Positions 3,553 to 16,006 of a DNA stretch of 64,000 bases are shown here, piece by piece. A model generated the notes under the pieces. It worked only from the letters and a program-made list of their open reading frames with translations. It made no database searches and was not told the DNA's origin. How positions within the stretch are numbered: position 1 is the stretch's first letter; every line of letters begins with the position of its first letter. The DNA is from an uncultured Acidimicrobiaceae bacterium. Lineage in GTDB: Bacteria > Actinomycetota > Acidimicrobiia > Spongiisociales > ZC4RG35. The stretch spans positions 3,070 through 67,069 of the forward strand of contig CAYVTP010000001.1 of NCBI GenBank assembly GCA_964454615.1, in the 5' to 3' direction. The position numbers were made by a program, and so were the translations under genes.

Positions 3553-5508
3553 TCAGGCCCCCAGGTGTTCCCGGATCCGGCTGGCGATCGCCTCCGGCGT
3601 GAAGCCGAGCTTCTCGGCGATCACGTGGTCCGGAGCCGACGCCCCGTAGTGGTCGATCCCGATCTTCAGGCCTTTTCCCACTATCCGCTCCCAGCCGAAA
3701 GTGGCGGCGGCTTCGATCGACACCAAAGGCGCCTCCCCGAGCACCTCTCTTCGATAGTCCTCGGGCTGTTCGAAGAACAGCTCCCAACAGGGAAGGGAGA
3801 CCACCCGCGCCTCGATGCCCGACTCGAAGAGGAGGTCCGCCGCGTCGAGAGCCAGCGCCACTTCCGAGCCGGTGGCGACCAGGGTGACATCCTGCCCATC
3901 CCTGACCACATAGCCGCCGCGAGCGACACCGCCGTCCACGGCCTCGAGGGTGCGCACCTTCTGGCGAGTCAGTACCAGGCCAACCGGTCCTTCGGTCCGA
4001 TTGAGGGCCACCTCCCATGCCTGCACCACTTCGTTGGCGTCGGCCGGTCGAATCGTCCACATCCCCGGCATCGCCCTCAACGACGCCAGGTGCTCGATCG
4101 GTTGGTGGGTGGGACCGTCCTCACCGAGAAACACCGAGTCGTGGGTCCACACCCATATCGAGGGCGCCTCCATGAGGGCGGCCAGCCGAACCGCCGGTCG
4201 CATGTAATCGCTGAAGAGGAAGAAGGTGGCCCCGTAAGGGCGCAACCCTCCGTGGATCGCCATGCCGTTGACCACCGTCCCCATCGCATGCTCACGGACG
4301 CCGAAGGGGATGTCGCGGGCCGCCCTGTCCTCCTTCGAGAACAGACGCCCGTCTTCTATGACCGTGGAGGTCGATCCGGCCAGGTCCGCCGCACCGCCGA
4401 TCAGCCCTGGCACCTTCTCGGCGAGCTCGGCGAAGAGCTTGCCCCCCGACGAGCGTGTGGCGATGTCCTCTCCCACTTCGAACCCGGGGCCCGACAGGCT
4501 GACCGGCTCGGGGTTGTGGAGGCGGTCCCACAGCTGGCGGACGTCGCCGTCGGCGGCGTCGAGTCGGCGACGCCACTCCATGTTGGCCGACCGGCCACGC
4601 TCCATTGCCTCGTCGAAGAACTCGCGCACCCCCTCGGGGACGTAGAACTCCTCATCGACGGGAAAGCCCATCCCTTCCTTGACCAGGGCTACCTCCTCCT
4701 CACCCAATGGCTTGCCATGGGCATCGGCGGTGTCCTGGAGGTTGGGGGAGCCGTGGGCGATGTGAGTCCGACAGATGATGAGTGTCGGCTGGTCTTCCTG
4801 GGCCAGAGCCTCTTCGATGGCCCGGTCGATCTCCTCTCTGTCGTGGCCGTCGACCTCGGAGGTGTGCCAGCCCATGGCGCCGAACCGTCGGGAAACATCC
4901 TCCGAGAAGGTGATGTCGGTGGAACCGTCGATGGTTATCCGGTTGGAGTCGTAGAGGTAGATCAGCCGTCCCAGGCCGAAATGGCCGGCCAGTGATGCGG
5001 CCTCGGAGCTGACGCCCTCCATCAGGTCCCCGTCCGAGACGAAGGCGTATGTCCGATGGTCGACCAACTCCTGGCCGAGGCGCGCCCTCAGGTGGGCTTC
5101 GGCGAGGGCCATCCCCACCGCCGTGCCGAACCCCTGGCCGAGGGGGCCGGTCGTCATCTCCACTCCGAGATCCTGGTGGATCTCCGGGTGGCCGTCGGTG
5201 TGGGACTCCCACTGCCGGAAGTTGCGTATGTCCTCGAGGGTGGTGCCGAAACCAGCGAGGTGGAGCAACGAGTAGAGGAGCATCGAGCCGTGGCCGTTGG
5301 ATAGGACGAACCGGTCGCGGTCCGGCCAGGTCGGATCCGTCGGGTCGACCTTCAAGTGACGTGTCCACAGGGTCACCGCAATATCGGCCATTCCCATGGG
5401 CATGCCAGGGTGTCCGGCGTTGGCCCTCTGGACCGCGTCCATGGACAGGCCTTTGATGGTGTTGACGGCTAGTTGCTCCAGGGCGGCGCGTTCTGTCCTG
5501 GCTGTCAT
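3553..5508 (-). CDS. tkt: transketolase
   Basis: Full-length similarity to Tkt (LEQLAVNTIKGLSMDAVQRANAGHPGMPMGMADIA..., TPP-binding and pyrimidine-binding regions). Start chosen at MTARTER (cat at 5506-5508); the upstream 5509..5730 extension is Pro/Arg-rich and unlikely to be coding. Confidence 0.9.
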   Translation of the reverse strand: MTARTERAALEQLAVNTIKGLSMDAVQRANAGHPGMPMGMADIAVTLWTRHLKVDPTDPTWPDRDRFVLSNGHGSMLLYSLLHLAGFGTTLEDIRNFRQWESHTDGHPEIHQDLGVEMTTGPLGQGFGTAVGMALAEAHLRARLGQELVDHRTYAFVSDGDLMEGVSSEAASLAGHFGLGRLIYLYDSNRITIDGSTDITFSEDVSRRFGAMGWHTSEVDGHDREEIDRAIEEALAQEDQPTLIICRTHIAHGSPNLQDTADAHGKPLGEEEVALVKEGMGFPVDEEFYVPEGVREFFDEAMERGRSANMEWRRRLDAADGDVRQLWDRLHNPEPVSLSGPGFEVGEDIATRSSGGKLFAELAEKVPGLIGGAADLAGSTSTVIEDGRLFSKEDRAARDIPFGVREHAMGTVVNGMAIHGGLRPYGATFFLFSDYMRPAVRLAALMEAPSIWVWTHDSVFLGEDGPTHQPIEHLASLRAMPGMWTIRPADANEVVQAWEVALNRTEGPVGLVLTRQKVRTLEAVDGGVARGGYVVRDGQDVTLVATGSEVALALDAADLLFESGIEARVVSLPCWELFFEQPEDYRREVLGEAPLVSIEAAATFGWERIVGKGLKIGIDHYGASAPDHVIAEKLGFTPEAIASRIREHLGA

Positions 5509-5527: not shown

Positions 5528-6280
5528 TCAGGCCGGGCGGCAAAGGAGACACGCCCGATAGCCGGCTTCCTCTGCCTCTCCGGGGGAGTGGAAGTCGACC
5601 ACATTGGAGCTCGATGAGCGTCTGATGGCCCGGCAGGTAGGGTGGCAGAACACCCTGGTGCTGGTGTTGCCCTGCACTCTGACCCCGGACCCGGCGAGTC
5701 GGGCCAATCTTTCCGGCTCGGCCCCCTCATGGTCGAGGAGTTTGGTCTTCACCTGGGGCCCTCCCATCGAGTACTCGCCGATCGTCCCGTCCGACCGCAC
5801 CACCCGGTGACAGGGGATCATCAGAGGGATCGGGTTGCGGGCCAGGGCGGTCCCCACTGCCCGGACCGCTCCCGGTTTGCCAAGCTCGCCGGCCACCCAT
5901 CCGTAAGGTCGGACTTCGCCCCTGGGTATCGACCATGTGGCTTGCAGCACCTCCCTGTGGAAGAGTGAGAGCCGCCTCAGATCGACCGGGACCTTGCCCG
6001 GTCTGCCTGCCTCGATCGCCTCGGGGATGTGGCGGCCCCAGGCGCGTGGTGCCTCCGCCCTGATCAGCGGTAGCCCGGTCTTTTCGCCGATGGCGGGTAG
6101 CTCGGTCCCCGCCGGCGAGAGGGAGATCACACCTTCGGTCCCGAAGGTGACGATGACGTCTCCTATCGGTGACGGGTACAGGTCGAACCCCTCCGCCAGC
6201 CCGGTGCCCAATGCCACACCCTCGGCCAGCCCGGGCGGTGCCGATGTCTCCAATGCGGCCAGCGCGGTCTCGATGCTCAT
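5528..6280 (-). CDS. ogt: methylated-DNA-protein-cysteine methyltransferase fused to a C-terminal Ada-type Zn-binding (methylphosphotriester repair) domain
   Basis: MGMT active site IPCHRVV. The C-terminus VFCHPTCRAIRR...GYRACLLCRP matches the Ada N-domain pattern FCRPSCRAR...GFRPCKRCQP. 4-bp overlap with the upstream ECF sigma gene. Confidence 0.8.
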   Translation of the reverse strand: MSIETALAALETSAPPGLAEGVALGTGLAEGFDLYPSPIGDVIVTFGTEGVISLSPAGTELPAIGEKTGLPLIRAEAPRAWGRHIPEAIEAGRPGKVPVDLRRLSLFHREVLQATWSIPRGEVRPYGWVAGELGKPGAVRAVGTALARNPIPLMIPCHRVVRSDGTIGEYSMGGPQVKTKLLDHEGAEPERLARLAGSGVRVQGNTSTRVFCHPTCRAIRRSSSSNVVDFHSPGEAEEAGYRACLLCRPA

Positions 6281-6807
6281 TGCTCTTCCTCCATGATGGC
6301 TCTGAGTCGGTCCAGTGCCCTGTGGATGTCCGCCTTGACGGTCCCCTCGGGCCTACCGGTGACTTCGGATATCTCTGCGATGGAGAGTCCCGCCACGTGC
6401 CGGAGCACCACTGCGGTGCGTTGTGCCCGGGGCAGGGCCCCGAGCCTCCGGTCCCAGGCGGCATGGTCGGCGGGCTCCTGATCGGACACCGCCCGATCGA
6501 GCTCGACCGCCGGGATCGGGCGCCTTGCCCGGTCCCGTAGGTGGTTTCGCCCCAGGTTGAGGGCGATGGTCCACATCCACGCCTCGAGCCGCAGGCTCTC
6601 GACGCGAGTCCGGTCGTACCCGCTCAAGGCGCGGTATGCCCTGATCATGGCCTCCTGGGCCAGATCCTCCGCCTCCTGGTGGTCGCCCGTCAGCCGGCGC
6701 AGACCGGAGTACAGCCTGCCTGCCATGGCCCCTACCAGTTCGGGGAAGGCGCCGTCGAGATCGCTGGCCAGCCGCCCATTGAGATCGTCCATCAGCATGT
6801 AGAACAC
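6277..6807 (-). CDS. ECF-family RNA polymerase sigma-70 factor
   Basis: Region 2 (DLAQEAMIRAYRAL) and region 4 HTH (GLSIAEISEVTGRPEGTVKADIHRAL). Confidence 0.8.
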   Translation of the reverse strand: MFYMLMDDLNGRLASDLDGAFPELVGAMAGRLYSGLRRLTGDHQEAEDLAQEAMIRAYRALSGYDRTRVESLRLEAWMWTIALNLGRNHLRDRARRPIPAVELDRAVSDQEPADHAAWDRRLGALPRAQRTAVVLRHVAGLSIAEISEVTGRPEGTVKADIHRALDRLRAIMEEEQ

Positions 6808-6857
6808 GAGATAGGGGCGTCCGGTTGCATGGAGAGCAAGGTACCTAGTCTGGTGTC

Positions 6858-7535
6858 GTGGAGATGCACGAGATCGAGGCTGCGCTCACCAGGGCGGAAG
6901 AGAGTGTGGCTGCCGGCAGGGGTCTCGCCGGCACCGGATTCTGGAAGGCGGTCGGCGCACTCAAGAAGGACCCCGGGATGGTGGACCGTTACGCCCTGAG
7001 GGTCGCCGCCATCGACGAAGCCGCCTTTCGGTCCTGGGCGCTCCTGATCATCCCGATCGGCCTGGGCACCTTCCTGGCCGTGGTCGCCACCCTGGTCGGT
7101 CTGGGGTTGGTGGCCGCCGCCTACTGGCTGGAGGGGTGGTGGGCCATCGTGGCGTTCTTCGCCGGGGTGGGAGCACTCCTCGGGTCGACCCATGGCCTCG
7201 GCCACCTCGCGGTGGGGAGGGCGATGGGGATCCGCTTCACCGCCTGGTTCGTCTCTGAGGTCAAAAAGCCCCAGCCCGGCGTCAAACTGGACTACGCCAC
7301 CTACCTGCGAACGCCGCCGAGAGCCAGAGCCTGGATGCATGCCTCGGGGGCGATCGTCACCAAGGTGATCCCCTTCGCAATGATCGGGGCTGCCGTCGCA
7401 GCGGGGCTTCCCGGCTGGACGGTCTGGGCACTGGTGGCGCTGGGTGTCGTATTGGCCCTCTCGGACATCTTGTGGGCCGATACCTCCGACTGGGCCAAGG
7501 TCAAGAGGGAGATGTCGTTCGCTCAGAGCGAGTGA
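6858..7535 (+). CDS. hypothetical polytopic membrane protein
   Basis: 225 aa with 4-5 predicted TM helices; no recognisable family. Confidence 0.5.
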   Translation: MEMHEIEAALTRAEESVAAGRGLAGTGFWKAVGALKKDPGMVDRYALRVAAIDEAAFRSWALLIIPIGLGTFLAVVATLVGLGLVAAAYWLEGWWAIVAFFAGVGALLGSTHGLGHLAVGRAMGIRFTAWFVSEVKKPQPGVKLDYATYLRTPPRARAWMHASGAIVTKVIPFAMIGAAVAAGLPGWTVWALVALGVVLALSDILWADTSDWAKVKREMSFAQSE

Positions 7536-9172
7536 TCCGGCAGGCTGATCGACCCGTCGGTTCGGTGCATCTCCTCGTGCTCGGCGACCATCCGCTCGAA
7601 CACGTCGTTGTCGGCCACGTCTATGGCGATGATGTGGCGGTTCACCGGGCCGTCGGCCCGGTCGAAGGATCGTGCCCTGGCGATCAGAGCCGCAGCGGCG
7701 TCGTCGATGCGGGTGTGCTGGGCCAGGTGCTCCTCCCAGCTGTGGATCTCGAACAGCTCGGTGATCCTGTTCGGGTCCGAGATGTTCCTCATCAGCCGCC
7801 AGCGGTATGCCCCGGTACTCAATCGGACCAGCCGGAGGCTGTTCATCACCTTGGCGAACTCGATGAACTCGTCGGGCTCGATCACCCAGGTGTTGAGGAC
7901 TATCACGGGTCCTCCCTCCACTGCCGACTCCGTGTGGGGCTGTCCCGGCTCGCCGGTGAAACCCGGTGACTCGATGTCGTCGATCCGCGGTATCTGGAAC
8001 CTGGGGGCGAACAGACCGAGGACTATCGAGCCCGACGAGAAGATGATGAAGGTGGCCGCGGTGTCGATCTGGTCGGCAACCACTCCGGCAATGATCGAGC
8101 CGAGGGGAATGGTCCCCGCCCAGGCCAGCATGTAGAGAGACATCGCCCTACCCCGGATCCACTCCGGTGCCATCAGCTGTGCGGTGGCGTTCAGCGTCGA
8201 CATGGTGAGCAGCCAGAAGATGCCGCCGATGAACATGCCGATGCCCGCAACCCAGACGTTCGGGGCGAGACCGATCACGATGCCCACCACCCCGAACAGT
8301 GCCATGGTGGAGGGGACGGTGTTCCGGGTCGCCGACCTGAACAGCCGGGGCCTGATCACCGCCCCTGCCAGTGCCCCCGCACCCATCGCCCCCAGCATGA
8401 CGCCGAAGGCGCCGGCCTCCCCACCGAGACGCACGGTGTGCACCGGCAGGATCGCCTGGACGACGGCCGAGGTCATGGCGAACAGCGCAACCAGGGCAAG
8501 GAGGTTCCGAAAGGCCGGTGTGAAACGGGCGAACCGGATACCGGTCGATGCCGCCGACATGAGAGAGGTGTCCAGCCTGGCCCGTATCTTGAGATTGGGA
8601 GCGATGTAGAAGAGGACGGCGATCACCGACAGGTAGGAGACGGCGTTGATCCCGAAGCCGATGGCAGCCCCATAGGCCGCCACCAGGGCCCCGCCCAGCG
8701 CCGGGCCGATGGCCCGGGCCGTGTTGAAGGCGGCTGCCTGGAGGGCCACCGCCGACGCCAGGTGGTCCCGGGGGACCAGCTCGGGGAGGAGCGACTGCCA
8801 GGCCGGGAGGTTGAGAGAGGCACCGGTCCCCAGGACAAATCCGAGGGTCACCAGGAGCCACGGGGTCATCAGCCCGAGCTGGGACAGCAGGGCCATGGCC
8901 AGGGCGGACGAGGCCATGATCGCCTGTGCCACCCTCATCAGGTTGGCCCGGTTGAACATGTCGGCCAGCACGCCCGAAATGATCGAGAAGAAGAGCAGCG
9001 GCAGGAAGGCGGAGGCCACCATGAGTCCAACCCAGGTGCTCGACCCGGTGAGCTCGTACATCAGCCACGAGCCGGCCACCTGCTGGATGAACCCGCCCGT
9101 GGCCGAGAAGATGGTGGCGGCCCACAACGAGCGGAAGTGGGGGAACCGGAGTGGTGCTACGGCCGAGGTCAT
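7523..9172 (-). CDS. MFS transporter with a C-terminal ABM (antibiotic biosynthesis monooxygenase)-like domain
   Basis: 12-TM MFS core (EntS-like). ~120-aa C-terminal ferredoxin-like domain (PNRITELFEIHSWEEHLAQH). Confidence 0.75.
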   Translation of the reverse strand: MTSAVAPLRFPHFRSLWAATIFSATGGFIQQVAGSWLMYELTGSSTWVGLMVASAFLPLLFFSIISGVLADMFNRANLMRVAQAIMASSALAMALLSQLGLMTPWLLVTLGFVLGTGASLNLPAWQSLLPELVPRDHLASAVALQAAAFNTARAIGPALGGALVAAYGAAIGFGINAVSYLSVIAVLFYIAPNLKIRARLDTSLMSAASTGIRFARFTPAFRNLLALVALFAMTSAVVQAILPVHTVRLGGEAGAFGVMLGAMGAGALAGAVIRPRLFRSATRNTVPSTMALFGVVGIVIGLAPNVWVAGIGMFIGGIFWLLTMSTLNATAQLMAPEWIRGRAMSLYMLAWAGTIPLGSIIAGVVADQIDTAATFIIFSSGSIVLGLFAPRFQIPRIDDIESPGFTGEPGQPHTESAVEGGPVIVLNTWVIEPDEFIEFAKVMNSLRLVRLSTGAYRWRLMRNISDPNRITELFEIHSWEEHLAQHTRIDDAAAALIARARSFDRADGPVNRHIIAIDVADNDVFERMVAEHEEMHRTDGSISLPDHSL

Positions 9173-9178
9173 CAGGGC

Positions 9179-9466
9179 CTACTCCCGGGCGGCAAGGACG
9201 CTCTTGCGCTCGGTCGTGAATGCCCACCAGGGTTGTTGGGGGCCGCCCTCCATGTATCTGACGGCGGCGATGAAGACATCGAGGAGGCACGGGTCGTGGC
9301 GCGAGCCGGTGCGTAGGTTGATCTCGTCGTACATCTCGAAGGGGTCGCGACCTACCAGATCTCGAGGTCGACTGAACCCGAGGTACCTGAGGTTGGCGGC
9401 GATGGAGGGGCCGACGTTGGGAATGTCCTCCAACCGCTCGACCGTGCGGGAAGGGGCGGCAGGCAT
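9179..9466 (-). CDS. helix-hairpin-helix domain protein
   Basis: 95 aa; LEDIPNVGPSIAANLRYLGF is an HhH motif. Confidence 0.55.
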   Translation of the reverse strand: MPAAPSRTVERLEDIPNVGPSIAANLRYLGFSRPRDLVGRDPFEMYDEINLRTGSRHDPCLLDVFIAAVRYMEGGPQQPWWAFTTERKSVLAARE

Positions 9467-9505
9467 GAGGTTCGCAGCATAGATGGCGCGGACAGGACCG
9501 AGCCC

Positions 9506-9934
9506 CTACGACCCGAGGGTCGACTCGACTGCGGCGAGGTCGGCGAAGGTGGTGTCGCCCAAGGTCGAGCGGAGAGCCTCCTGGGCGGATGCCCAGGTCT
9601 CGTGGATGGCACAGCGATCGGCCCAGGCGCACACTCCGCCGCGGAGGATGCACTGATCCGACCTGATCGGACCATCGATCGACTCGATCAGCTCGAGGAG
9701 GGTGATCTCCGACGGCGGGATGGCCAGTCGGTAACCCCCGTCAGGGCCGGGTTCGGATCGGACCCTTCCCGTTCGGACCAGGGCCGCCAGGACCTGCGGG
9801 ATGTACTTCTCGGGTATGCCCATGGCCCCGGCGATCTCCTTGGCCTTCTGGCGGCCCGGGGATTCCCAATGTCGGGCCAGGTGGAGGACGGCGCGGACCG
9901 AGTAGTCAGCTCGCCGACCCAACTCCAATCGCAT
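9506..9934 (-). CDS. Rrf2-family transcriptional regulator (probable [Fe-S] sensor, NsrR/IscR-like)
   Basis: Start at MRLELGRRADYSVRAVLHLAR (cat at 9932-9934). wHTH plus three Cys with C-x6-C-x5-C spacing (CILRGGVCAWADRC). Adjacent to the nos genes. Confidence 0.8.
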   Translation of the reverse strand: MRLELGRRADYSVRAVLHLARHWESPGRQKAKEIAGAMGIPEKYIPQVLAALVRTGRVRSEPGPDGGYRLAIPPSEITLLELIESIDGPIRSDQCILRGGVCAWADRCAIHETWASAQEALRSTLGDTTFADLAAVESTLGS

Positions 9935-9959
9935 CCTCGTTTCCCTCTCGTTACCGGCC

Positions 9960-10787
9960 TCAGACGTCCCGACTTCGGAAGACCGCTGCGGCCGCCGCCA
10001 GTGGGGCGGCCAGCCACGCTGTCGTGGCCACGGCCAGGACAGCGGCTGCCTGGGCGACTCCGAAGCGGCTCTCCAGGAAGAACATGAATGGACCGAGGGC
10101 ATGGCCGTCGGTGGCCAGCAGCCCGAGGGTCCGGATGGCGGCCAACGGGTTCAGCAGTGTCATCCACAACAGGCCTGCCGGCCCGAGGTTCACCGGGGCG
10201 AGAGCGATCAGGATGACGTCGACGCCGAGGGCGATCAGGAACCACACGGCGACGGCGATCGCCGTCGCCTGGCCCCGCCCGTCTGCGAGCACCGAGATCA
10301 GGAGTCCGATCGCAACCCCGGCGGTTGCCGCGGCGAGGGTGACCGCGGTGGCCATCGCCAGTCCGGCCAGGTCGGACATGGTCATTGCCGGGGCCGTGAC
10401 CACCGCCACCAGCCCCAGACCGATGCAGATCGAGGCCCATACGGTGGCGGTGACCCCGAGGAAGCCTCCCCAGAGAATGGAGGACCGGGGGATCGGCTGA
10501 GCGGCCACCATGGCCAGTGTGCCCTGATCCCGGGCGCCGGCGACCACTCCCGAGCCGAGGAGGATCCCAAAGAGCGGGGGCACGAGCACGCCGATGGTGA
10601 GCAGGCCGTCGACGACGGCGCTGACACCTCTCAGGCCGAGGACGCTCATCGAACGCAGGTTGACCAGGGCGATCCCGACCGCCATGAGGGCATAGAGGGC
10701 GGCTGCCGCCAGGACCCACCGGCTTCGGGCGGCACCCCTCATTTCCCATACGGCGATGGTGAGGATGGGGCTCCGTGTCTTGGTCAT
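9960..10787 (-). CDS. nosY: NosY-like ABC-2 permease
   Basis: 275 aa, 6 TM. Start ATG (cat at 10785-10787) overlaps the NosF stop (ATGA). Context nosD-nosF-nosY. Confidence 0.75.
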   Translation of the reverse strand: MTKTRSPILTIAVWEMRGAARSRWVLAAAALYALMAVGIALVNLRSMSVLGLRGVSAVVDGLLTIGVLVPPLFGILLGSGVVAGARDQGTLAMVAAQPIPRSSILWGGFLGVTATVWASICIGLGLVAVVTAPAMTMSDLAGLAMATAVTLAAATAGVAIGLLISVLADGRGQATAIAVAVWFLIALGVDVILIALAPVNLGPAGLLWMTLLNPLAAIRTLGLLATDGHALGPFMFFLESRFGVAQAAAVLAVATTAWLAAPLAAAAAVFRSRDV

Positions 10788-11440
10788 GGCTTTGCCACTT
10801 TCAGCTTGGTGACCGTCGAACCGGGTCTTTCGACCAGCTTTCCCTCGGCCAGGCCGACCACGCGGTCGAAGGCCCGGGTCAGGTCGTCTGCCCGGGGGGT
10901 GGCGACCAGCACCGAGGCACCCTCTGCGGTGGCAACTACCAATCCCTGCTCCAGGGTTGCCCGACCCTCGTCGTCCAGGCTGGCCGCCGGCTCGTCGAGC
11001 AGTATCAGTGGCGGGCCGCCGAGCATCGAAACCGCCAGAGCCACTCGCTGCCGTTGCCCACCGGAGAGGACCCTCGCCGGGAGGCTGGTGTCGGGGAGGA
11101 ACTCCGGATCGAAGGGATGGGCCCCGGGGTCGACACCACGCAGTCGGGCGAAGAAGTCGATCACCTCGGCCACCGTCGGCCAGCCGGGGAAGCTCACCGA
11201 CTGGGGCAAGTACCCGATGCGGGAGCGGCCGGAGAGGGAGTCGAGCCCGTCGACGAGGATGGTTCCCTCGAACTTCGCCAGGCCGGCCACACATCTGAGG
11301 AAGGTGCTCTTGCCGCTCCCGTTGTGACCGGTGATGGCGGTGACCGTACCGGGCTCGAGATCGAGGTCGAGGTCGACCAGTACCTGTCGCGGGCCGAAGC
11401 TCTTGGAGACCCCTTGGGCGTGGAGTCGTGGTGGGGTCAT
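10784..11440 (-). CDS. nosF: NosF-like ABC transporter ATP-binding protein
   Basis: Walker A GHNGSGKST, signature LSGGQRQR, Walker B LILLDEP. Start MTPPRLHAQGV (cat at 11438-11440); the upstream in-frame extension is non-coding-like. Confidence 0.8.
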   Translation of the reverse strand: MTPPRLHAQGVSKSFGPRQVLVDLDLDLEPGTVTAITGHNGSGKSTFLRCVAGLAKFEGTILVDGLDSLSGRSRIGYLPQSVSFPGWPTVAEVIDFFARLRGVDPGAHPFDPEFLPDTSLPARVLSGGQRQRVALAVSMLGGPPLILLDEPAASLDDEGRATLEQGLVVATAEGASVLVATPRADDLTRAFDRVVGLAEGKLVERPGSTVTKLKVAKP

Positions 11441-13542
11441 GTCCGGACTCCTGTTCTGGGACGCCGCGAGAGCCTGAAGAAACTTCCCGCCGAGGTGACC
11501 AGCACCGCGAACCCGGCGATGCCCGCAGCAGCGGCTGCTGTGGGGTCTTGGGGGGCTTCGGAGATCCTGGGCGACACCGGCTCGGTGAGAGGCCAGTCGT
11601 CGGTGGCGACCGGCGACAGTGTGAGCCACCGACTCTCCATCGCTCCGATGATTCGCATCGAGGGGGAGTTGGCGAGCGAAGAGAGGATTGGCGAGCGAAT
11701 CAAGAGGCGGTTCACCGAGCTCGCCTCCGAGTGGGGGACTAGGCCCCGCCCGTTCTCCCCATAGCCCCTGTAGCTGCTCCAGTAGTTACCCCAACCTCTA
11801 TCCGACCATACGATCTGGGTCGCCACGCTGCGTCCCTGCTGTGAGACCTGCACGAGATTGTCGACGAAGCTGTTGGCGGTGAACACCACGGCTGCCGAAG
11901 GGAACACCACCACCCCGAACTGGTTGTCGGCCACGGTGTTGGCCACGACCATCATGGGGAGTGCGCCACCGGCGGGGCCGTCGAGGTGGAGCCCCACCCG
12001 ATTGTCGGTCACTCGGTTCTCCACGACCGTCGCATCGGTGACGTCCTTGAGGAGGATCCCGAACCCGGTCGATGATGACACATTGCCGGAGAGGGAGTTG
12101 CGGACCACCTCCACCTCCCCGCCGTACATGAGAACAGCCCCGGACAGGTTCCCTTCGAACCGGTTCTCGATCAGCATGAGCTGTCGGCTGTACATGGTGT
12201 GGACTGCGTAGCGGCTGTTGGCCACTTCGACGTTGTCGATCAAGACGGAGGAGGCGAATGAGGCGTAGATCCCATCGCGCACATCCTGGATACGGGTCCC
12301 CCGGACCAGGACCCAGTCGGACTCCCACAGCGAGATCCCGTCTCCGCGGCCCCCGACGAGGTGTGCATCGTGAGATCCGTCGGCGGCATGGCTCTCACCT
12401 CCGAAGGCGGCCTCCTCGCGACCGAGTATCAGGCTGTTCAGGATACGGGTCCCCTCGACATCGCCCACCGCGATGCCCATGTAGCTGTCGGCGACGATTA
12501 CGCCATCGATCTCCACACCATCGGCCGCCACCCTGATCCCGGCCGGTTGCCCTCCGGGCCCGTGCCCGCTGCCGGTGACATGGATCCCCTTGAGGGTGGT
12601 GCCCGGTGCGGTCACCGTGATCACGGTGCCTGACCGGCTACCCACGATCAGTGGCATCCCATCCCCTTCGATGGTGATTGAGCGATCGATGACCAAGTCC
12701 CCGCGGTATGACCCAGAGGGCAGAGTCAGAGTCCCGCCATCGGGCACACCTGCGATCAGAGATGCCAGATCGAGCAGTTCGTCGTGATCGACCATCCCGC
12801 CCGACGGGCTCGGGTGAGTTGGAGTTGGTCTTGTAGCGTCGCCGGAAGGGGTGAGGCTGCCCTGTCCGGAGTGGTCATGTCCGGAGTGGTCATGTCCATC
12901 GTGAGCCACTGCGGGCAGGGCGGTGGTCATCGTCAGGATCACCAGGAGGGCGAGGGCCGTCGTCGTCGACCTCAGGAGTTTGTCGGCCAGCTTGGGGCCG
13001 AAGCTGATGAGCGCGGCCGTGGCCAGGAGGGCGAGAGTGCCGGTCCCTGGCAGGGACCACGCCGTGAAGTTCCAGACCCGGGTGGGCCCGACCGCCCATG
13101 GTGTGAACCCTTCCATGCGGAAGGCGGCGCCAGGGTCGAGGTCGTGGCCGAACTGGTGCAGTCGGAGCTGGATGACGGCGAGGATGGAGAGAGGGAACAG
13201 CCACAGATAGAGTCTGGCCAGCCTGCCGATTACTCCCCTGACCATCAACCCGAGGATGACCGCCACGCCAGCCACTGCCAGCCCGAGGGGCCAGAGGGCA
13301 ATCTCCGGGAAGTCCTCGATGCTGAAGGGTCGCATCCCGATGTAGTGGTTGAGGCTGTCGATCTCGGCCAGGTCGCCTTCGGCCCGGTCACCGAACACCA
13401 CCAACTCGAGACCGTCCGGGTACTGAGGTGCGGCGAGGGCGGACCTCCAGAGCGGCAAGGCCATTGCGGAAGCGATCAGGAGGATGGCGACCAGGGCGAT
13501 GACCACCCTTGGCCAACCGGGAGTCCTATTGGAAGATCCCAC
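11437..13542 (-). CDS. nosD: NosD-like right-handed beta-helix protein fused to an N-terminal polytopic membrane domain with a His-rich segment
   Basis: Central/C-terminal part has parallel beta-helix (CASH/NosD) repeats (IHVTGSGHGPGGQPAGIRVAADGVEIDGVIVADSYMGIAVG..., repeated NxxxxN/VxxN turns). N-terminal ~230 aa has 5-6 TM helices followed by HDGHDHSGHDHSGQG. Likely GTG start at ~13542 (AAGGAG 10 nt upstream); the ORF tool started at a TTG at 13590. Confidence 0.7.
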   Translation of the reverse strand: MGSSNRTPGWPRVVIALVAILLIASAMALPLWRSALAAPQYPDGLELVVFGDRAEGDLAEIDSLNHYIGMRPFSIEDFPEIALWPLGLAVAGVAVILGLMVRGVIGRLARLYLWLFPLSILAVIQLRLHQFGHDLDPGAAFRMEGFTPWAVGPTRVWNFTAWSLPGTGTLALLATAALISFGPKLADKLLRSTTTALALLVILTMTTALPAVAHDGHDHSGHDHSGQGSLTPSGDATRPTPTHPSPSGGMVDHDELLDLASLIAGVPDGGTLTLPSGSYRGDLVIDRSITIEGDGMPLIVGSRSGTVITVTAPGTTLKGIHVTGSGHGPGGQPAGIRVAADGVEIDGVIVADSYMGIAVGDVEGTRILNSLILGREEAAFGGESHAADGSHDAHLVGGRGDGISLWESDWVLVRGTRIQDVRDGIYASFASSVLIDNVEVANSRYAVHTMYSRQLMLIENRFEGNLSGAVLMYGGEVEVVRNSLSGNVSSSTGFGILLKDVTDATVVENRVTDNRVGLHLDGPAGGALPMMVVANTVADNQFGVVVFPSAAVVFTANSFVDNLVQVSQQGRSVATQIVWSDRGWGNYWSSYRGYGENGRGLVPHSEASSVNRLLIRSPILSSLANSPSMRIIGAMESRWLTLSPVATDDWPLTEPVSPRISEAPQDPTAAAAAGIAGFAVLVTSAGSFFRLSRRPRTGVRT

Positions 13543-13593
13543 GGTCGTCACGCTCCTTTCACTCAGTATCTGGAGGCCCAACGCCCTCAACCT

Positions 13594-13971
13594 CTATTCG
13601 GAGATCAACGTTCCGAACATTCCGGACTCGTAGTGGCCCGGGATGGTGCAGATGAACTCGTAGGTCCCCGGCTGGAAGGTCACCGTTTCCCTCACCGTCT
13701 GCCCTGGGTCGGCGTACATGTCCAGGCCCACGGCTTCGATGGTGAAGTCGTGCTCGACGACCCCATGGTTCATGAAGACGAAGGTCACCGGGACCCCGGC
13801 AGGGACCTCGATGGTGCTGGGATCGAACTCGAACTCCGTTGCGTGGATTTCGATTTCGATCCCGCTCGGGGCTGTCGTGGGTGCGGTGGTCCCACCGCCT
13901 CCCCCGTCCCCGCCGCAGGCGGCGAGGACGAGGATGAGGGCGGTGATGGAGGCTGTGTATCGGTGTCGCAT
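13594..13971 (-). CDS. type-1 copper cupredoxin lipoprotein (plastocyanin/azurin-like)
   Basis: Lipobox LVLAACGG. Type-1 Cu ligands in HDF...FICTIPGHYESGM (His, Cys, His, Met). Confidence 0.7.
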   Translation of the reverse strand: MRHRYTASITALILVLAACGGDGGGGGTTAPTTAPSGIEIEIHATEFEFDPSTIEVPAGVPVTFVFMNHGVVEHDFTIEAVGLDMYADPGQTVRETVTFQPGTYEFICTIPGHYESGMFGTLISE

Positions 13972-14014
13972 TTTGTTCACGCTCGCTTGTCTAGTCGTTC
14001 TCTCTCGTGTGTTC

Positions 14015-16006
14015 TCAGGGCTCCACCAGGAGCCAGCCCTGCATCTCCAGGTGGAGGGCGGAGCAGAACTCGGTGCAGTAGAAGGCGAAGGCGCCACTGC
14101 GATTGGCGGTGAACTCGAGCGAGACCACTTCGCCCGGGTCGAGGCTCGCCTGGAGGTTGTAGGCCGGTATGGCGAACCCGTGGGTGGCATCGCGGGCGGT
14201 CTCGATGTTGGTGATGTGCATCACCACCTTGTCGCCTGCCCGCACCCTGATCACGTCAGGGGTGAAAGTGCTGCGCCGTGCAGTCATGTAGATGTGGGTC
14301 TCGTCTCCTACCTGCTCGATTCGCTCTTCGCCGGCCGCAATGGCCACGGCGGAAGGGCCCATGGTCAGGGGGTCGGTGCCCACCGGATACACCACCCACG
14401 GATCGGCCAGCTTGTCCAGTGCGATCATCTGCACGTAGTGGGGCTCGCCGAAGCCGATCGGCATGTCCTTGAGGATCCGCAACTCCGGCCCGTCGATGTC
14501 GATGAGCTGGAAGTTCTGCGGATGAAGGGTGCCTATGGCCGGGAACCGATCGACCGACCACTTGTTGAGGGCGACCAGGTACTTGCCGTGCGGGTTGACG
14601 GTGTCGCCGTGGGCGGTCACCAGGTGCCCGATATTGTAGTGCACCGGCACCTTGTCGACCAGCTTGAAGGCGTCAGCCTCGGCCACGCCGGCCTCCGGCC
14701 CCAGAGTCCAGCGGGCGACCGCGCTCTCCACGAACAATGACGTGTAGGCGTTGCCCCTGTTGTCGAACTGGGTGTGTAGCGGGCCTGCGCCAAGCTCCAC
14801 CTGGGCCTCGACGACTGCCTCGAACCGGAGGATCGGGACGCCGAACTGGTCGGTCCCTTCGAAGTCCTGGTTGGCGATGGCCTCCTTGATCCGATCGATG
14901 GTGTAGACGGTGGCGATGGGGTCGAGCTTGCCTGACACCACGATGTAGTTGCCGTCGGGGGAGACGTCGACACCGTGGGGGTTCCTCGGCTCGGCGGCGA
15001 AGTGGAGGAGACCCTCGTCGATCGCCGTCTGGAGCCGGATCATCCGCGCCCCGTTGATCATCTCGTACTTGCCTTCGGCGACCACCTGCTCTGCCAGCTC
15101 CCAGTTGATGATGTGGAGGTAGTCGAAGCTATTGGCGATGGCCCCCGACTCCAGTGGCGGGTTTCCTTCCCAGATCCCCCCGGTAGCCATCTCGGTGTTG
15201 TACGAGTTGATGAACGCCCAGCCGTGGCTTGCCAGCTTGCCGGCGTCGGCCAGGTCCTGGTTGTACGGGGGAAGCTCGATCTGGAAGCTCCTGTCCAGGT
15301 CGGCATGCCCGGTCTCGGGGTCGATGGCCACGAACATCGAAGCGCCCCGGTAGTACTCGGCGTATTCATCGAGGTCGGCGTATCCCCCCGGCGCCAGGTA
15401 CGGCGAAGGGGTCTTGGCCGCCACGTGGACGTACTCGGTGTTCGGTGTGGCGAACACCCCACCATGTGAGGTCTGCATGTTGGGGAGGTCGATGATCTGC
15501 TTGGTCTTGAAGTCCCGCAGGTCGACCATCGCCAGTCGGCCGTTGGCCCTGTCGTTGATGTAGAGGAAGCGGCCGTCGTAGTCGCCGTCGGTCTCCGAAA
15601 TGGCAGGGTGGTGTGTGTCCCCCCATGCCAGCGGGTTGTTCTGCATCGGGTCGACGCCCTCGTCGAGCACCTCCATGCTCCAGTCGGCCCCGAACCCGAA
15701 TCCGGACCATGCATCGGGGGCGAAGACCGGAATCGTCTTCAGCAGCCGCATCGACGGCACCCCGATCACATGCATCTGCCCGGAGTGGCCCCCGGAGGCG
15801 AAGATCAGGTACTCGTCGTGGTCGCCCGGGGCGACGAAGGTCTGAAGCGCGGCGGTGGCCTCGGCTCCGGTGAGCCCGCGTTGTGATGCGATGTCGGCGA
15901 GCTGTCCTCCGGCCGCCGTGCCGAATCCGACCCGGCCGCCCACCACCCCGATCACCAGACCCAGCACCAGTGCCAGGGCCAGGAAGATCCTGTTCTTACC
16001 GTTCAT
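14015..16006 (-). CDS. nosZ: nitrous-oxide reductase NosZ, Sec-dependent clade-II type
   Basis: CuA motif YCTEFCSALHLEMQGW with upstream HGF. CuZ beta-propeller His motifs (GDTHHP etc.). Signal peptide MNGKNRIFLALALVLG lacks a twin-Arg. Strong SD GGAGGTG upstream of the ATG (cat at 16004-16006). Confidence 0.9.
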   Translation of the reverse strand: MNGKNRIFLALALVLGLVIGVVGGRVGFGTAAGGQLADIASQRGLTGAEATAALQTFVAPGDHDEYLIFASGGHSGQMHVIGVPSMRLLKTIPVFAPDAWSGFGFGADWSMEVLDEGVDPMQNNPLAWGDTHHPAISETDGDYDGRFLYINDRANGRLAMVDLRDFKTKQIIDLPNMQTSHGGVFATPNTEYVHVAAKTPSPYLAPGGYADLDEYAEYYRGASMFVAIDPETGHADLDRSFQIELPPYNQDLADAGKLASHGWAFINSYNTEMATGGIWEGNPPLESGAIANSFDYLHIINWELAEQVVAEGKYEMINGARMIRLQTAIDEGLLHFAAEPRNPHGVDVSPDGNYIVVSGKLDPIATVYTIDRIKEAIANQDFEGTDQFGVPILRFEAVVEAQVELGAGPLHTQFDNRGNAYTSLFVESAVARWTLGPEAGVAEADAFKLVDKVPVHYNIGHLVTAHGDTVNPHGKYLVALNKWSVDRFPAIGTLHPQNFQLIDIDGPELRILKDMPIGFGEPHYVQMIALDKLADPWVVYPVGTDPLTMGPSAVAIAAGEERIEQVGDETHIYMTARRSTFTPDVIRVRAGDKVVMHITNIETARDATHGFAIPAYNLQASLDPGEVVSLEFTANRSGAFAFYCTEFCSALHLEMQGWLLVEP

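Follow-up and report, generated by a model that had tools for sequence, protein, structure and literature searches.

A conserved, translationally coupled pair of an ECF sigma factor and an MGMT-Ada Zn protein, a candidate alkylation-sensing anti-sigma system, in an uncultured Acidimicrobiaceae bacterium

The textbook adaptive response to alkylation is that of Ada, a single protein that serves as both sensor and activator and whose architecture is missing from many phyla; ECF sigma factors, for their part, are known to respond mainly to envelope, redox and metal stress. The locus described here raises the question whether a protein with the two alkyl-acceptor domains of Ada regulates an ECF sigma factor or is merely encoded beside it as a repair enzyme. 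The locus lies in a stretch of 64,000 nucleotides, called the window (64 kb) below. An earlier, sequence-only reading had described an ECF sigma factor gene coupled to a gene for a fusion of an O6-alkylguanine methyltransferase (MGMT) with the Ada zinc domain (AdaZn), had noted that no AraC-type helix-turn-helix (HTH) is present and that the second gene, here called the partner, occupies the place of an anti-sigma gene, and had proposed the partner as a candidate anti-sigma factor sensing alkylation. The features of the locus are summarized in Table 1.

Table 1. Features of the sigma/partner locus (positions in the window)
Feature	Position	Strand	Evidence or remark
Partner gene, 250 aa: anti-sigma-domain remnant (by homology), MGMT and Ada Zn domain	5528..6280	minus	domain search, alignment, model
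Partner residues 1-31, extension at the N-terminus, not part of the MGMT fold	6188..6280	minus	hhalign to ZAS N-termini; conservation
Partner residues 32-100, MGMT N-terminal domain	5981..6187	minus	Foldseek match 1sfe, TM 0.80
Partner residues 101-190, MGMT catalytic and DNA-binding domain	5711..5980	minus	PF01035 E 2e-29
Partner residues 202-250, Ada-type Zn(Cys)4 methylphosphotriester domain	5531..5677	minus	PF02805 E 8e-13
ATGA overlap of sigma stop codon and partner start codon	6277..6280	minus	sequence; translational coupling
ECF sigma factor gene	6277..6792	minus	171 aa from ATG 6792; Pfam Sigma70_r2 and Sigma70_r4_2, NCBIfam sigma70-ECF
ECF-type promoter TGCAACC-N15-CGTGTTC (core GCAAC-N16-GTGTT)	6802..6829	minus	9 nt upstream of sigma ATG

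The longest form of the sigma ORF (6807..6277, minus strand) begins with a GTG at 6807 and contained, in a Pfam scan, Sigma70_r2 (E 6e-16), Sigma70_r4_2 (E 9e-16) and no further domain. Because GTG 6807 falls within the conserved -10 element CGTGTTC (6808..6802), the true start is most likely the ATG at 6792; the resulting 171 aa is the commonest sigma length among the homologues. Identity to the MGMT-AdaZn-paired sigma factors of Nonomuraea, Streptomyces and Rubrobacter was 40-44%. The partner ORF is on the same strand, and the coupling of the two genes that the sequence-only reading had described was confirmed by the ATGA overlap.

The domain calls for the partner likewise held. PF01035 covers residues 107-187 (TIGR00589 was matched too) and PF02805 residues 202-249, the gap between MGMT and AdaZn is 11 residues, and no match to HTH_AraC or HTH_18 was obtained at E<=0.01. 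The C-terminal cysteine motif is that of the Ada Zn domain: C212 (encoded at 5645-5647), C216, C244 and C247 align to Ada Cys38/42/69/72 (alignment offset to N-Ada 28-74). All four are invariant among 124 homologues, as are the MGMT residues Y126, R140, N149, P156-C157-H158-R159 (the PCHR motif with acceptor Cys157, encoded at 5812..5810) and E185. Judged by these residues, both alkyl-acceptor sites of the partner are intact. Intact catalytic sites are equally to be expected of a plain repair enzyme and speak to that extent against an anti-sigma reading.

An AF2 model of the partner built on 124 sequences reached a pLDDT of 94 and a pTM of 0.85 (an earlier run on 17 sequences gave a pLDDT of 67). 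Regarding its best structural matches, which were both parts of E. coli Ada, Foldseek gave a TM of 0.80 to Ada-C (1sfe) and an rmsd of 1.7 A over 51 columns to methylated, DNA-bound N-Ada (1u8b). With phmmer, the AdaZn domain matched N-Ada 1adn, 1zgw and 1u8b, and the alignment to Ada-C (1sfe) began at residue 28.

The segment ahead of the MGMT fold links the partner to anti-sigma factors. Homologues from Acidobacteriota, Gemmatimonadota and other phyla carry a zf-HC2 (ZAS) class I anti-sigma domain fused before MGMT-AdaZn: an HxxxCxxC motif stands ahead of MGMT in 14 of the 150 cluster representatives, 13 of which have both MGMT and AdaZn, Pfam zf-HC2 was matched in relatives, and a ZAS-type domain is present in P0252, P0256, P0270, P0285 and others. 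C3, H29, C33 and C36 are invariant in the ZAS-form relatives; the second ZAS cysteine is missing in one relative, L021. A profile of the ZAS N-termini matched the solved anti-sigma factors RsiW (E 9e-6), DdvA, ChrR, RslA and RsrA, with its helix-4 motif aligned to 'APADFTANVMAKL' of RsiW. The gene overlap in these forms is 11 nt, as against the ATGA of the window.

The partner in the window has no helices 1-3 with the H-x3-C-x2-C zinc motif and begins with the last part of helix 3. Its residues 1-31 align to the helix-3 end and helix 4 of class I anti-sigma domains, the helix-4 motif of these domains and of the relatives being AP-x2-L-x3-V, and hhalign of the non-ZAS against the ZAS N-termini gave 95% probability and E 2e-8 (residues 3-39, template columns 46-80). 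Conservation of residues 1-31 is 0.74, equal to that of the enzyme domains, and the AF2 model predicts helices at residues 3-9 and 18-26. By these sequence comparisons, class I (ZAS) anti-sigma domains are either the source of the MGMT-AdaZn family or fused to it.

In solved sigma/anti-sigma complexes the helix-4 segment binds sigma regions 2.1/2.2, the docking surface for the beta' clamp helices of RNA polymerase. Of the 14 top predicted sigma contacts, 12 fell in helix 4 of class I domains; this helix was proposed to block core binding, and zinc is structural in many of these domains (PMC7406223). By homology, helix 4 is therefore a candidate sigma2-binding element in the window's partner. 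With helices 1-3 and the zinc finger gone, occlusion of sigma4 in the manner of canonical class I anti-sigma factors is impossible for this protein, and since it keeps only the helix-3 end and helix 4, inhibition of the sigma factor is something that we infer. The earlier proposal of an anti-sigma candidate is thus strengthened by zf-HC2 in the relatives and by the helix-4 homology, and weakened by the truncation of the protein on which it was based. We know of no characterised precedent for a helix-4-only inhibitor, and a literature search found no experimentally characterised anti-sigma factor of the MGMT type.

RsrA is an example of a ZAS domain that responds to thiol-reactive compounds. 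By analogy with RsrA-SigR, the zinc-thiolates of the family (the AdaZn Cys4 site, the MGMT cysteine and, in relatives, the ZAS site) might be modified directly by soluble electrophiles or oxidants, and the full ZAS motif of the relatives and the conservation of several activated cysteines would suit such a thiol-stress sensor. We consider it improbable. The invariance of Y126, R140 and N149, which serve DNA binding and base flipping in MGMT, argues for DNA-lesion chemistry, and both the lost ZAS cysteine of L021 and the structural role of zinc in many class I domains (PMC7406223) count against it.

The pairing itself is conserved far beyond chance. A related sigma gene lies directly upstream of the partner homologue in 7/7 assessable Acidimicrobiia loci, in 9/9 loci of other lineages and phyla, in all four cultured Actinomycetota (4/4) and in 32/32 assessable MGMT-AdaZn metagenome loci, versus 0/7 loci of generic MGMT genes. 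The partner thus keeps the gene position of an anti-sigma factor in every assessable relative; ZAS-form homologues, too, are always preceded by a related ECF sigma gene. In the metagenome set, AdaZn was also missing from 22 loci of sigma-linked relatives, and nine AdaZn-negative loci of the generic MGMT kind had no sigma gene. Genes around the pair otherwise differ between lineages, and the module spans Actinomycetota, Acidobacteriota and Gemmatimonadota, reaching beyond Actinobacteria.

A neighbourhood of sigma, MGMT and Ada_Zn_binding is already catalogued as ECF203, and its MGMT-only version as ECF122. ECF203 is actinobacterial, with O6-methylguanine methyltransferase at +1 and, per ECF, 1.22 Ada_Zn_binding, 0.78 MFS and 0.88 TetR in the neighbourhood; no anti-sigma factor and no conserved promoter were recognised, and a TetR regulator was proposed (Casas-Pastor et al. 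2021, NAR). ECF122 is likewise actinobacterial with MGMT at +1, no anti-sigma factor was recognised, and the predicted target promoter is CTCAC-Xn-CGTCTAC (Casas-Pastor et al. 2021). Both groups are described in the supplement of the bioRxiv version and are absent from the main text; ECF122 was filed under 'unknown mechanism' in a later review (PMC8999054). That the published classification found no anti-sigma factor for either group speaks against an anti-sigma reading. New here are the zf-HC2 fusion in relatives, the helix-4 remnant in the window's partner and the ECF promoter shared across phyla.

Regarding other regulators in the window, no further anti-sigma candidate was found within about 5 kb of the pair, and the 64-kb window contains no second sigma gene and no second MGMT gene. 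The TetR regulator suggested for ECF203 has no counterpart here, no TetR ORF being present within about 5 kb. A divergently encoded membrane protein of 225 aa (6858-7535) was considered as an anti-sigma factor; it had no Pfam match, tblastn located it in no loci but L001-L006 and L008, all from Acidimicrobiia, and it was rejected because it is unlinked to the pair elsewhere. An MFS_3 gene (7523-9172) lies near the pair and an Rrf2 regulator gene at 9506-10102. Neither a sigma70-type promoter nor an intrinsic terminator was found between the partner gene and tkt, so tkt may be co-transcribed with the pair.

The promoter motif upstream of the sigma gene occurs once in the whole window (0.1 matches expected). 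Other near-matches in the window have a spacing of 15 or 17 nt and are at chance level; a second copy with the correct 16-nt spacing was found neither in the window nor in any fetched locus, which counts against the self-activating module discussed below. The motif stands at the equivalent place upstream of sigma in L001-L006, L008, L018-L023, L025-L026 and L028, with variants in L027 (GAAAC) and in L016 (CGAAC-N16-GTGTC, judged by eye). Among 80 metagenome loci, the motif was matched 26 times in gene orientation, in no fewer than 24 cases immediately before sigma, and four times on the opposite strand. TGCAAC-N16-GTGTT is thus kept across phyla with the spacing fixed at 16 nt, and sigma and MGMT-AdaZn are a conserved pair, coupled in translation and preceded by an ECF promoter that is likewise conserved. 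This promoter is likely autoregulatory, and the transcript from it would be a leaderless or very-short-leader mRNA.

The position of the promoter, immediately adjoining the operon, bears on a further possibility. E. coli Ada is switched on by methylation of Cys38 and makes contact with region 4 of sigma70. By analogy, methylation of the partner's Zn-Cys site might confer DNA affinity, and the protein, bound to the ECF sigma holoenzyme, might then stimulate the TGCAAC-N16-GTGTT promoter, the sigma factor replacing the AraC HTH; the match of the AdaZn domain to methylated, DNA-bound N-Ada (1u8b) fits such a positive co-activator. Little likelihood is attached to it, however. The domain fused to the family in relatives belongs to a family of inhibitors (zf-HC2/ASDI), a conserved element resembling an Ada box was not noticed ahead of the -35 in the promoter alignment, and AdaZn is missing from the 22 sigma-linked loci and from the ECF122 group, so that it cannot be the essential coupling device.

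The remaining alternative is a plain inducible repair operon, in which the sigma factor would be a dedicated activator and the partner, a bifunctional alkyltransferase, its target and not its regulator. The sigma factor would then be set by its transcription, by another regulator or by turnover; in lineages that retain helix 4 alone, the ancestral anti-sigma role would be gone, and the N-terminal helix would do no more than cap the MGMT N-domain structurally. The loss of helices 1-3 and the zinc finger from the window's partner and the intactness of all its catalytic residues agree with this, as does the view of Casas-Pastor et al., who saw no anti-sigma factor and proposed TetR for ECF203; in the compact model (pTM 0.85) the N-terminal helices, with a pLDDT of about 80, may pack on the enzyme. 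Yet the N-terminal 31 residues are conserved like the catalytic domains and are homologous to a sigma2-binding helix, coupling and strict adjacency persist in truncated forms despite differing neighbours, the window's pair has no TetR gene near it, and a positively autoregulated sigma factor without a regulator would lock on. We regard the plain operon as rather unlikely.

The idea of an alkylation-sensing anti-sigma factor is plausible from the comparisons made here and better supported than before, less so for the truncated form in the window. It is the identity of the two acceptor domains that suggests alkylation as the signal. In our judgement the chances are evenly balanced that the two genes constitute a self-activating ECF sigma module, the second gene encoding a cytoplasmic, anti-sigma-derived protein with two suicide alkyl-acceptor domains. 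In an undamaged cell, the unalkylated partner would hold the sigma factor through its N-terminal helix; in ZAS forms, helices 1-3 would additionally engage sigma4. Once Cys157 had irreversibly accepted an alkyl group from O6-alkylguanine, or Cys212 one from a methylphosphotriester, or both, the partner would be changed or destabilised and the sigma factor freed; the free sigma would transcribe its own operon, adding to the sigma pool and replenishing the repair/anti-sigma protein. The response would stop once unalkylated partner again exceeded sigma, and alkylation damage would thus be met by an adaptive response driven by consumption, with no need for an AraC-type activator. A general form of this proposal is held more tentatively, at somewhat less than even chances: as a suicide sensor, each anti-sigma molecule would be inactivated by one alkyl transfer and would free one ECF sigma, so that transcription would keep pace with the using-up of repair protein, independently of Ada, across Actinomycetota, Acidobacteriota and Gemmatimonadota, and in forms like that of the window helix 4 on an MGMT fold would suffice.

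If this mechanism is true, DNA alkylation damage would become a signal for the ECF sigma family, and the extent to which repair is induced would follow the amount of damage without the textbook Ada route. The sensor of the anti-sigma factor would be a stoichiometric, irreversible enzyme; a helix-4-only inhibitor would be a minimal, sigma2-directed anti-sigma factor, and ECF122 (about 1,200 proteins) and ECF203, both listed without an anti-sigma factor and with their mechanism unknown, would be accounted for. The proposal lends itself to direct experiment, since there are cultured carriers (Nonomuraea gerenzanensis, Rubrobacter radiotolerans RSPS-4 and Streptomyces sp. NBC_01022) and TGCAAC-N16-GTGTT is a defined promoter that can be used as a reporter.

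Compared by group description, the window resembles ECF203 in having an ECF sigma factor of sigma2 and sigma4 only, MGMT at +1, AdaZn and an MFS gene nearby; it differs in lacking a TetR gene close to the pair, in having a conserved promoter, in the homology of the +1 protein to class I anti-sigma domains and in the spread of the module beyond Actinobacteria. MGMT at +1 is also shared with ECF122, whereas the promoter TGCAACC-N15-CGTGTTC does not fit that predicted for the group. With E. coli Ada the partner has both suicide acceptor domains in common (Zn(Cys)4 methylphosphotriester and PCHR O6-alkylguanine transferase), and expression under autoregulation is probably common to both systems. 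The two domains stand in the opposite order, however, MGMT (107-187) preceding AdaZn (202-249), promoter recognition is left to a separate ECF sigma factor in place of an AraC-type HTH, and control is likely exerted by release from inhibition and not by direct activation.

The cytoplasmic class I/ZAS systems RsrA-SigR, ChrR-SigE and RsiW-SigW are matched by the C-x25-H-x3-C-x2-C and helix-4 motif of the relatives, by the translationally coupled partner gene directly after sigma and by a probably autoregulated sigma factor; the order of an anti-sigma domain followed by a soluble sensor domain is that of ChrR. In contrast to these systems, the sensor would be an irreversible, stoichiometric pair of DNA-repair enzymes, and in the window's partner helices 1-3 are gone together with the zinc finger, the predicted sigma2-binding helix alone being left. 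With stand-alone Ogt/MGMT proteins the partner shares the full two-domain fold and the catalytic residues, to which it adds a conserved N-terminal helix segment, a C-terminal AdaZn domain and strict linkage to an ECF sigma factor.

The 250-aa partner protein encoded beside the ECF sigma gene consists of an MGMT domain (PF01035, residues 107-187, E 2e-29) followed by an Ada_Zn_binding domain (PF02805, residues 202-249, E 8e-13), and the Pfam scan of the ORF gives no AraC HTH. The sequence-only reading of a fusion of these two domains, lacking the HTH and translationally coupled to an ECF sigma factor, is thus borne out; sigma stop and partner start share an ATGA overlap. The acceptor cysteine of the PCHR motif (Cys157) is intact, as are the zinc cysteines C212, C216, C244 and C247, which align to Cys38, Cys42, Cys69 and Cys72 of Ada (N-Ada residues 28-74) and identify the C-terminal motif as the Ada zinc domain. 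All four zinc cysteines, like Y126, R140, N149, C157, H158 and E185, are invariant across 124 aligned homologues; beside this, a role as direct electrophile or thiol sensor is unlikely. The AF2 model built from that alignment is confident (pLDDT 94, pTM 0.85) and matches E. coli Ada-C (1sfe, TM 0.80) as well as the methylated, DNA-bound form of N-Ada (1u8b, rmsd 1.7 A). A role as an Ada-like co-activator is improbable.

Features at and around the sigma/partner pair in the window
Feature	Position	Strand	Remarks
Transketolase (tkt)	3553-5508	-	directly 3' of partner, 19-nt gap
Partner ORF, 250 aa	6280..5528	-	PF01035 + PF02805 (Pfam); NCBIfam agrees
ECF-type sigma ORF (maximal)	6807..6277	-	Sigma70_r2 + Sigma70_r4_2 (Pfam)
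Putative ECF promoter, TGCAACC-N15-CGTGTTC	6829..6802	-	sole match in 64-kb window, 0.1 expected
Multi-pass membrane protein, 225 aa	6858-7535	+	divergent from sigma
MFS_3 transporter	7523-9172
Cdd1-family (PF11731) small protein + Rrf2-family regulator	9179-10102	-	just past MFS_3 gene
NosD-like + cupredoxin genes	11437-14190		farther out than Rrf2-family regulator

No other Pfam domain was found in the sigma ORF, in agreement with NCBIfam. Alignment of the DNA upstream of sigma genes gave a conserved promoter motif (core GCAAC-N16-GTGTT) that stops 9 nt short of the ATG. As GTG 6807 lies within the conserved -10 element, translation most likely starts at ATG 6792, yielding 171 aa, the commonest homologue length; the short distance from promoter to start codon points to an mRNA with no leader or almost none. 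The core occurs once per Acidimicrobiia locus, and the same architecture and 16-nt spacing precede sigma in Nonomuraea, Streptomyces and the lineage of comparison locus L025. Rubrobacter has a GAAAC variant with identical 16-nt spacing. Of the seven loci of Acidobacteriota/Gemmatimonadota type, six have a CGAAC variant ahead of sigma, and in the seventh (L016) CGAAC-N16-GTGTC is visible. In the set of 80 metagenome loci the motif matched 26 on the strand of the genes, at least 24 of these just upstream of sigma, versus 4 matches on the opposite strand. Judged by sequence, a promoter of this kind marks an ECF group under positive autoregulation. The DNA examined (64-kb window and comparison loci) yielded no second copy, and the operon itself is therefore the only target shown.

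Acidimicrobiia metagenome-assembled genomes contain many close relatives (57-69% identity), and these keep the full local order of MFS transporter, membrane protein, sigma, partner and tkt. Taken alone, this could reflect shared descent, and more distant loci were therefore examined. Searching 1.84 billion cluster representatives with a profile (E <= 1e-30) yielded 338 in three forms: an N-terminal helix with MGMT and AdaZn (approximately 250-276 aa), the helix with MGMT only (approximately 190-215 aa), and an extra N-terminal domain with MGMT and AdaZn (about 295-320 aa). A related sigma gene lies directly upstream in 7/7 loci of the long (about 295-aa) form from several phyla, each with an 11-nt overlap and with every other neighbour different, in 2/2 loci of shorter forms from other lineages, in all four from cultured Actinomycetota (Nonomuraea gerenzanensis, Rubrobacter radiotolerans plasmid 2, Streptomyces sp. 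NBC_01022 and the more distant Arthrobacter) and in 32/32 metagenome loci that have AdaZn and sufficient upstream DNA, whereas generic MGMT loci gave 0/7. Metagenome loci without AdaZn were divided (22 with upstream sigma, 9 without). The conserved unit is the sigma/partner pair, which is a genuine and conserved regulatory module, so far uncharacterised.

The surroundings vary. The divergent membrane protein has no Pfam match; its motifs THGL[GA]H, which resembles metalloprotease HExxH minus the glutamate, and RAWMHA[AS]GA are conserved in Acidimicrobiia loci only. No terminator was found in the gap between partner and transketolase, and on the Rubrobacter radiotolerans plasmid (L027 4304-4978) a ribulose-phosphate 3-epimerase gene directly follows the pair; these pentose-phosphate genes could reflect coincidence or co-transcription. 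On the Streptomyces plasmid (L028 3462-4894) partner WP_326740982.1 retains PCHR and AdaZn but has a degenerate MGMT DNA-binding helix region (ETVVGF in place of AVRAVG), and a second, canonical MGMT gene lies 3' of it; this partner may be specialising as a sensor. The replicon of Arthrobacter sp. StoSoilB13 (L029 2309-4777) carries, in this order, ogt, a gene for a distant ECF sigma (29% identity), an MGMT of the helix-4 type that lacks AdaZn, and an ORF resembling an AlkB-type dioxygenase by eye, which looks like an alkylation-repair cluster around sigma. In L024 (3387-3997) the sigma upstream of a 269-aa MGMT-AdaZn protein is split into two ORFs (r2, r4), which reflects a frameshift/pseudogene or else a misassembly.

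The extra domain of the long forms is zf-HC2 (ZAS) by Pfam, with Cys3, His29, Cys33 and Cys36 invariant. A profile of these N-termini matches the solved anti-sigmas RsiW (5wuq_C, E 9e-6), DdvA, ChrR, RslA and RsrA, the RsiW alignment extending across the helix-4 motif 'APADFTANVMAKL'. L021 (4001-4891) reads HLERCAEL, without the second cysteine of H-x3-C-x2-C, and is a non-zinc variant of the fusion. In two unrelated loci (L020 4894-5631, L023 4946-5650) the gene immediately 3' of ZAS-MGMT encodes a SpoIIE/PP2C phosphatase. Sigmas with ZAS-form partners (L016, L018-L023) share a sigma2 cysteine (YDEARC); at that position the window sigma carries valine, and its whole sequence is free of cysteine; 'C in sigma2' is noted also for ECF122 (Casas-Pastor et al. 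2021 supplement).

The ZAS domain is absent from the window partner, because the start codon of this gene and the stop codon of sigma overlap. Its residues 1-31 (MSIETALAALETSAPPGLAEGVALGTGLAEG) show a conservation of 0.74, versus 0.72-0.80 in the enzyme domains, and align to the ZAS forms at the end of helix 3 and helix 4 (AP-x2-L-x3-V); profile-profile comparison of the two N-termini gave 95% probability (E 2e-8). Class I anti-sigma domains contact sigma4 through helices 1-3 and sigma regions 2.1/2.2 through helix 4, which carries most predicted sigma contacts; regions 2.1/2.2 are the surface docking on the beta' clamp helices (PMC7406223). From this homology and these helix roles, the window partner is predicted to combine a remnant of the anti-sigma domain (helix 4) with MGMT and AdaZn.

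The data show that sigma and partner are coupled behind a probably autoregulatory promoter, that both suicide acceptor sites are intact, and that the partner has an anti-sigma ancestry in which the helix-4 segment is kept. The unalkylated partner would sequester sigma; alkyl transfer to Cys157 and/or Cys212 would alter or destabilise it and release sigma, and the operon would be induced until fresh unalkylated partner restored inhibition. The chances that this cycle operates as a whole appear evenly balanced. The alkylation-sensing anti-sigma first proposed from sequence is plausible and gains comparative support from the ZAS homology, but the case for direct inhibition of sigma is weakest for the truncated window form, which lacks helices 1-3. 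On that truncation turns the main rival, in which the partner is merely a target gene of sigma and truncated forms have lost anti-sigma function; set beside the conserved helix 4, it is the less likely account.

Regarding known systems, the partner lies outside the strict Ada family because the HTH is absent and the domain order reversed, and it falls short of the full class I anti-sigma definition because helices 1-3 are absent. ECF122 (Actinobacteria) has MGMT at +1, no anti-sigma and a predicted promoter CTCAC-Xn-CGTCTAC (Casas-Pastor et al. 2021 supplement); a 2022 review places it under 'unknown mechanism' and names MGMT as possible regulator. ECF203 (104 actinobacterial proteins) also has MGMT at +1, with Ada_Zn_binding (1.22), MFS (0.78) and TetR (0.88) neighbours per ECF; neither anti-sigma nor conserved promoter was found, and TetR was suggested as regulator (Casas-Pastor et al. 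2021 supplement). The window matches the description of ECF203 in having MGMT-AdaZn at +1 and an MFS gene nearby, but the surrounding region, out to about 5 kb from the pair, contains no TetR gene. The literature search found no experimental study of this sigma/MGMT-AdaZn system. The genomic association of sigma with MGMT and AdaZn is already catalogued; what is added to the catalogue here is that the +1 protein is homologous to class I anti-sigma domains, that other phyla contain complete ZAS-MGMT-AdaZn fusions, that the promoter is conserved and that the module reaches beyond Actinobacteria.
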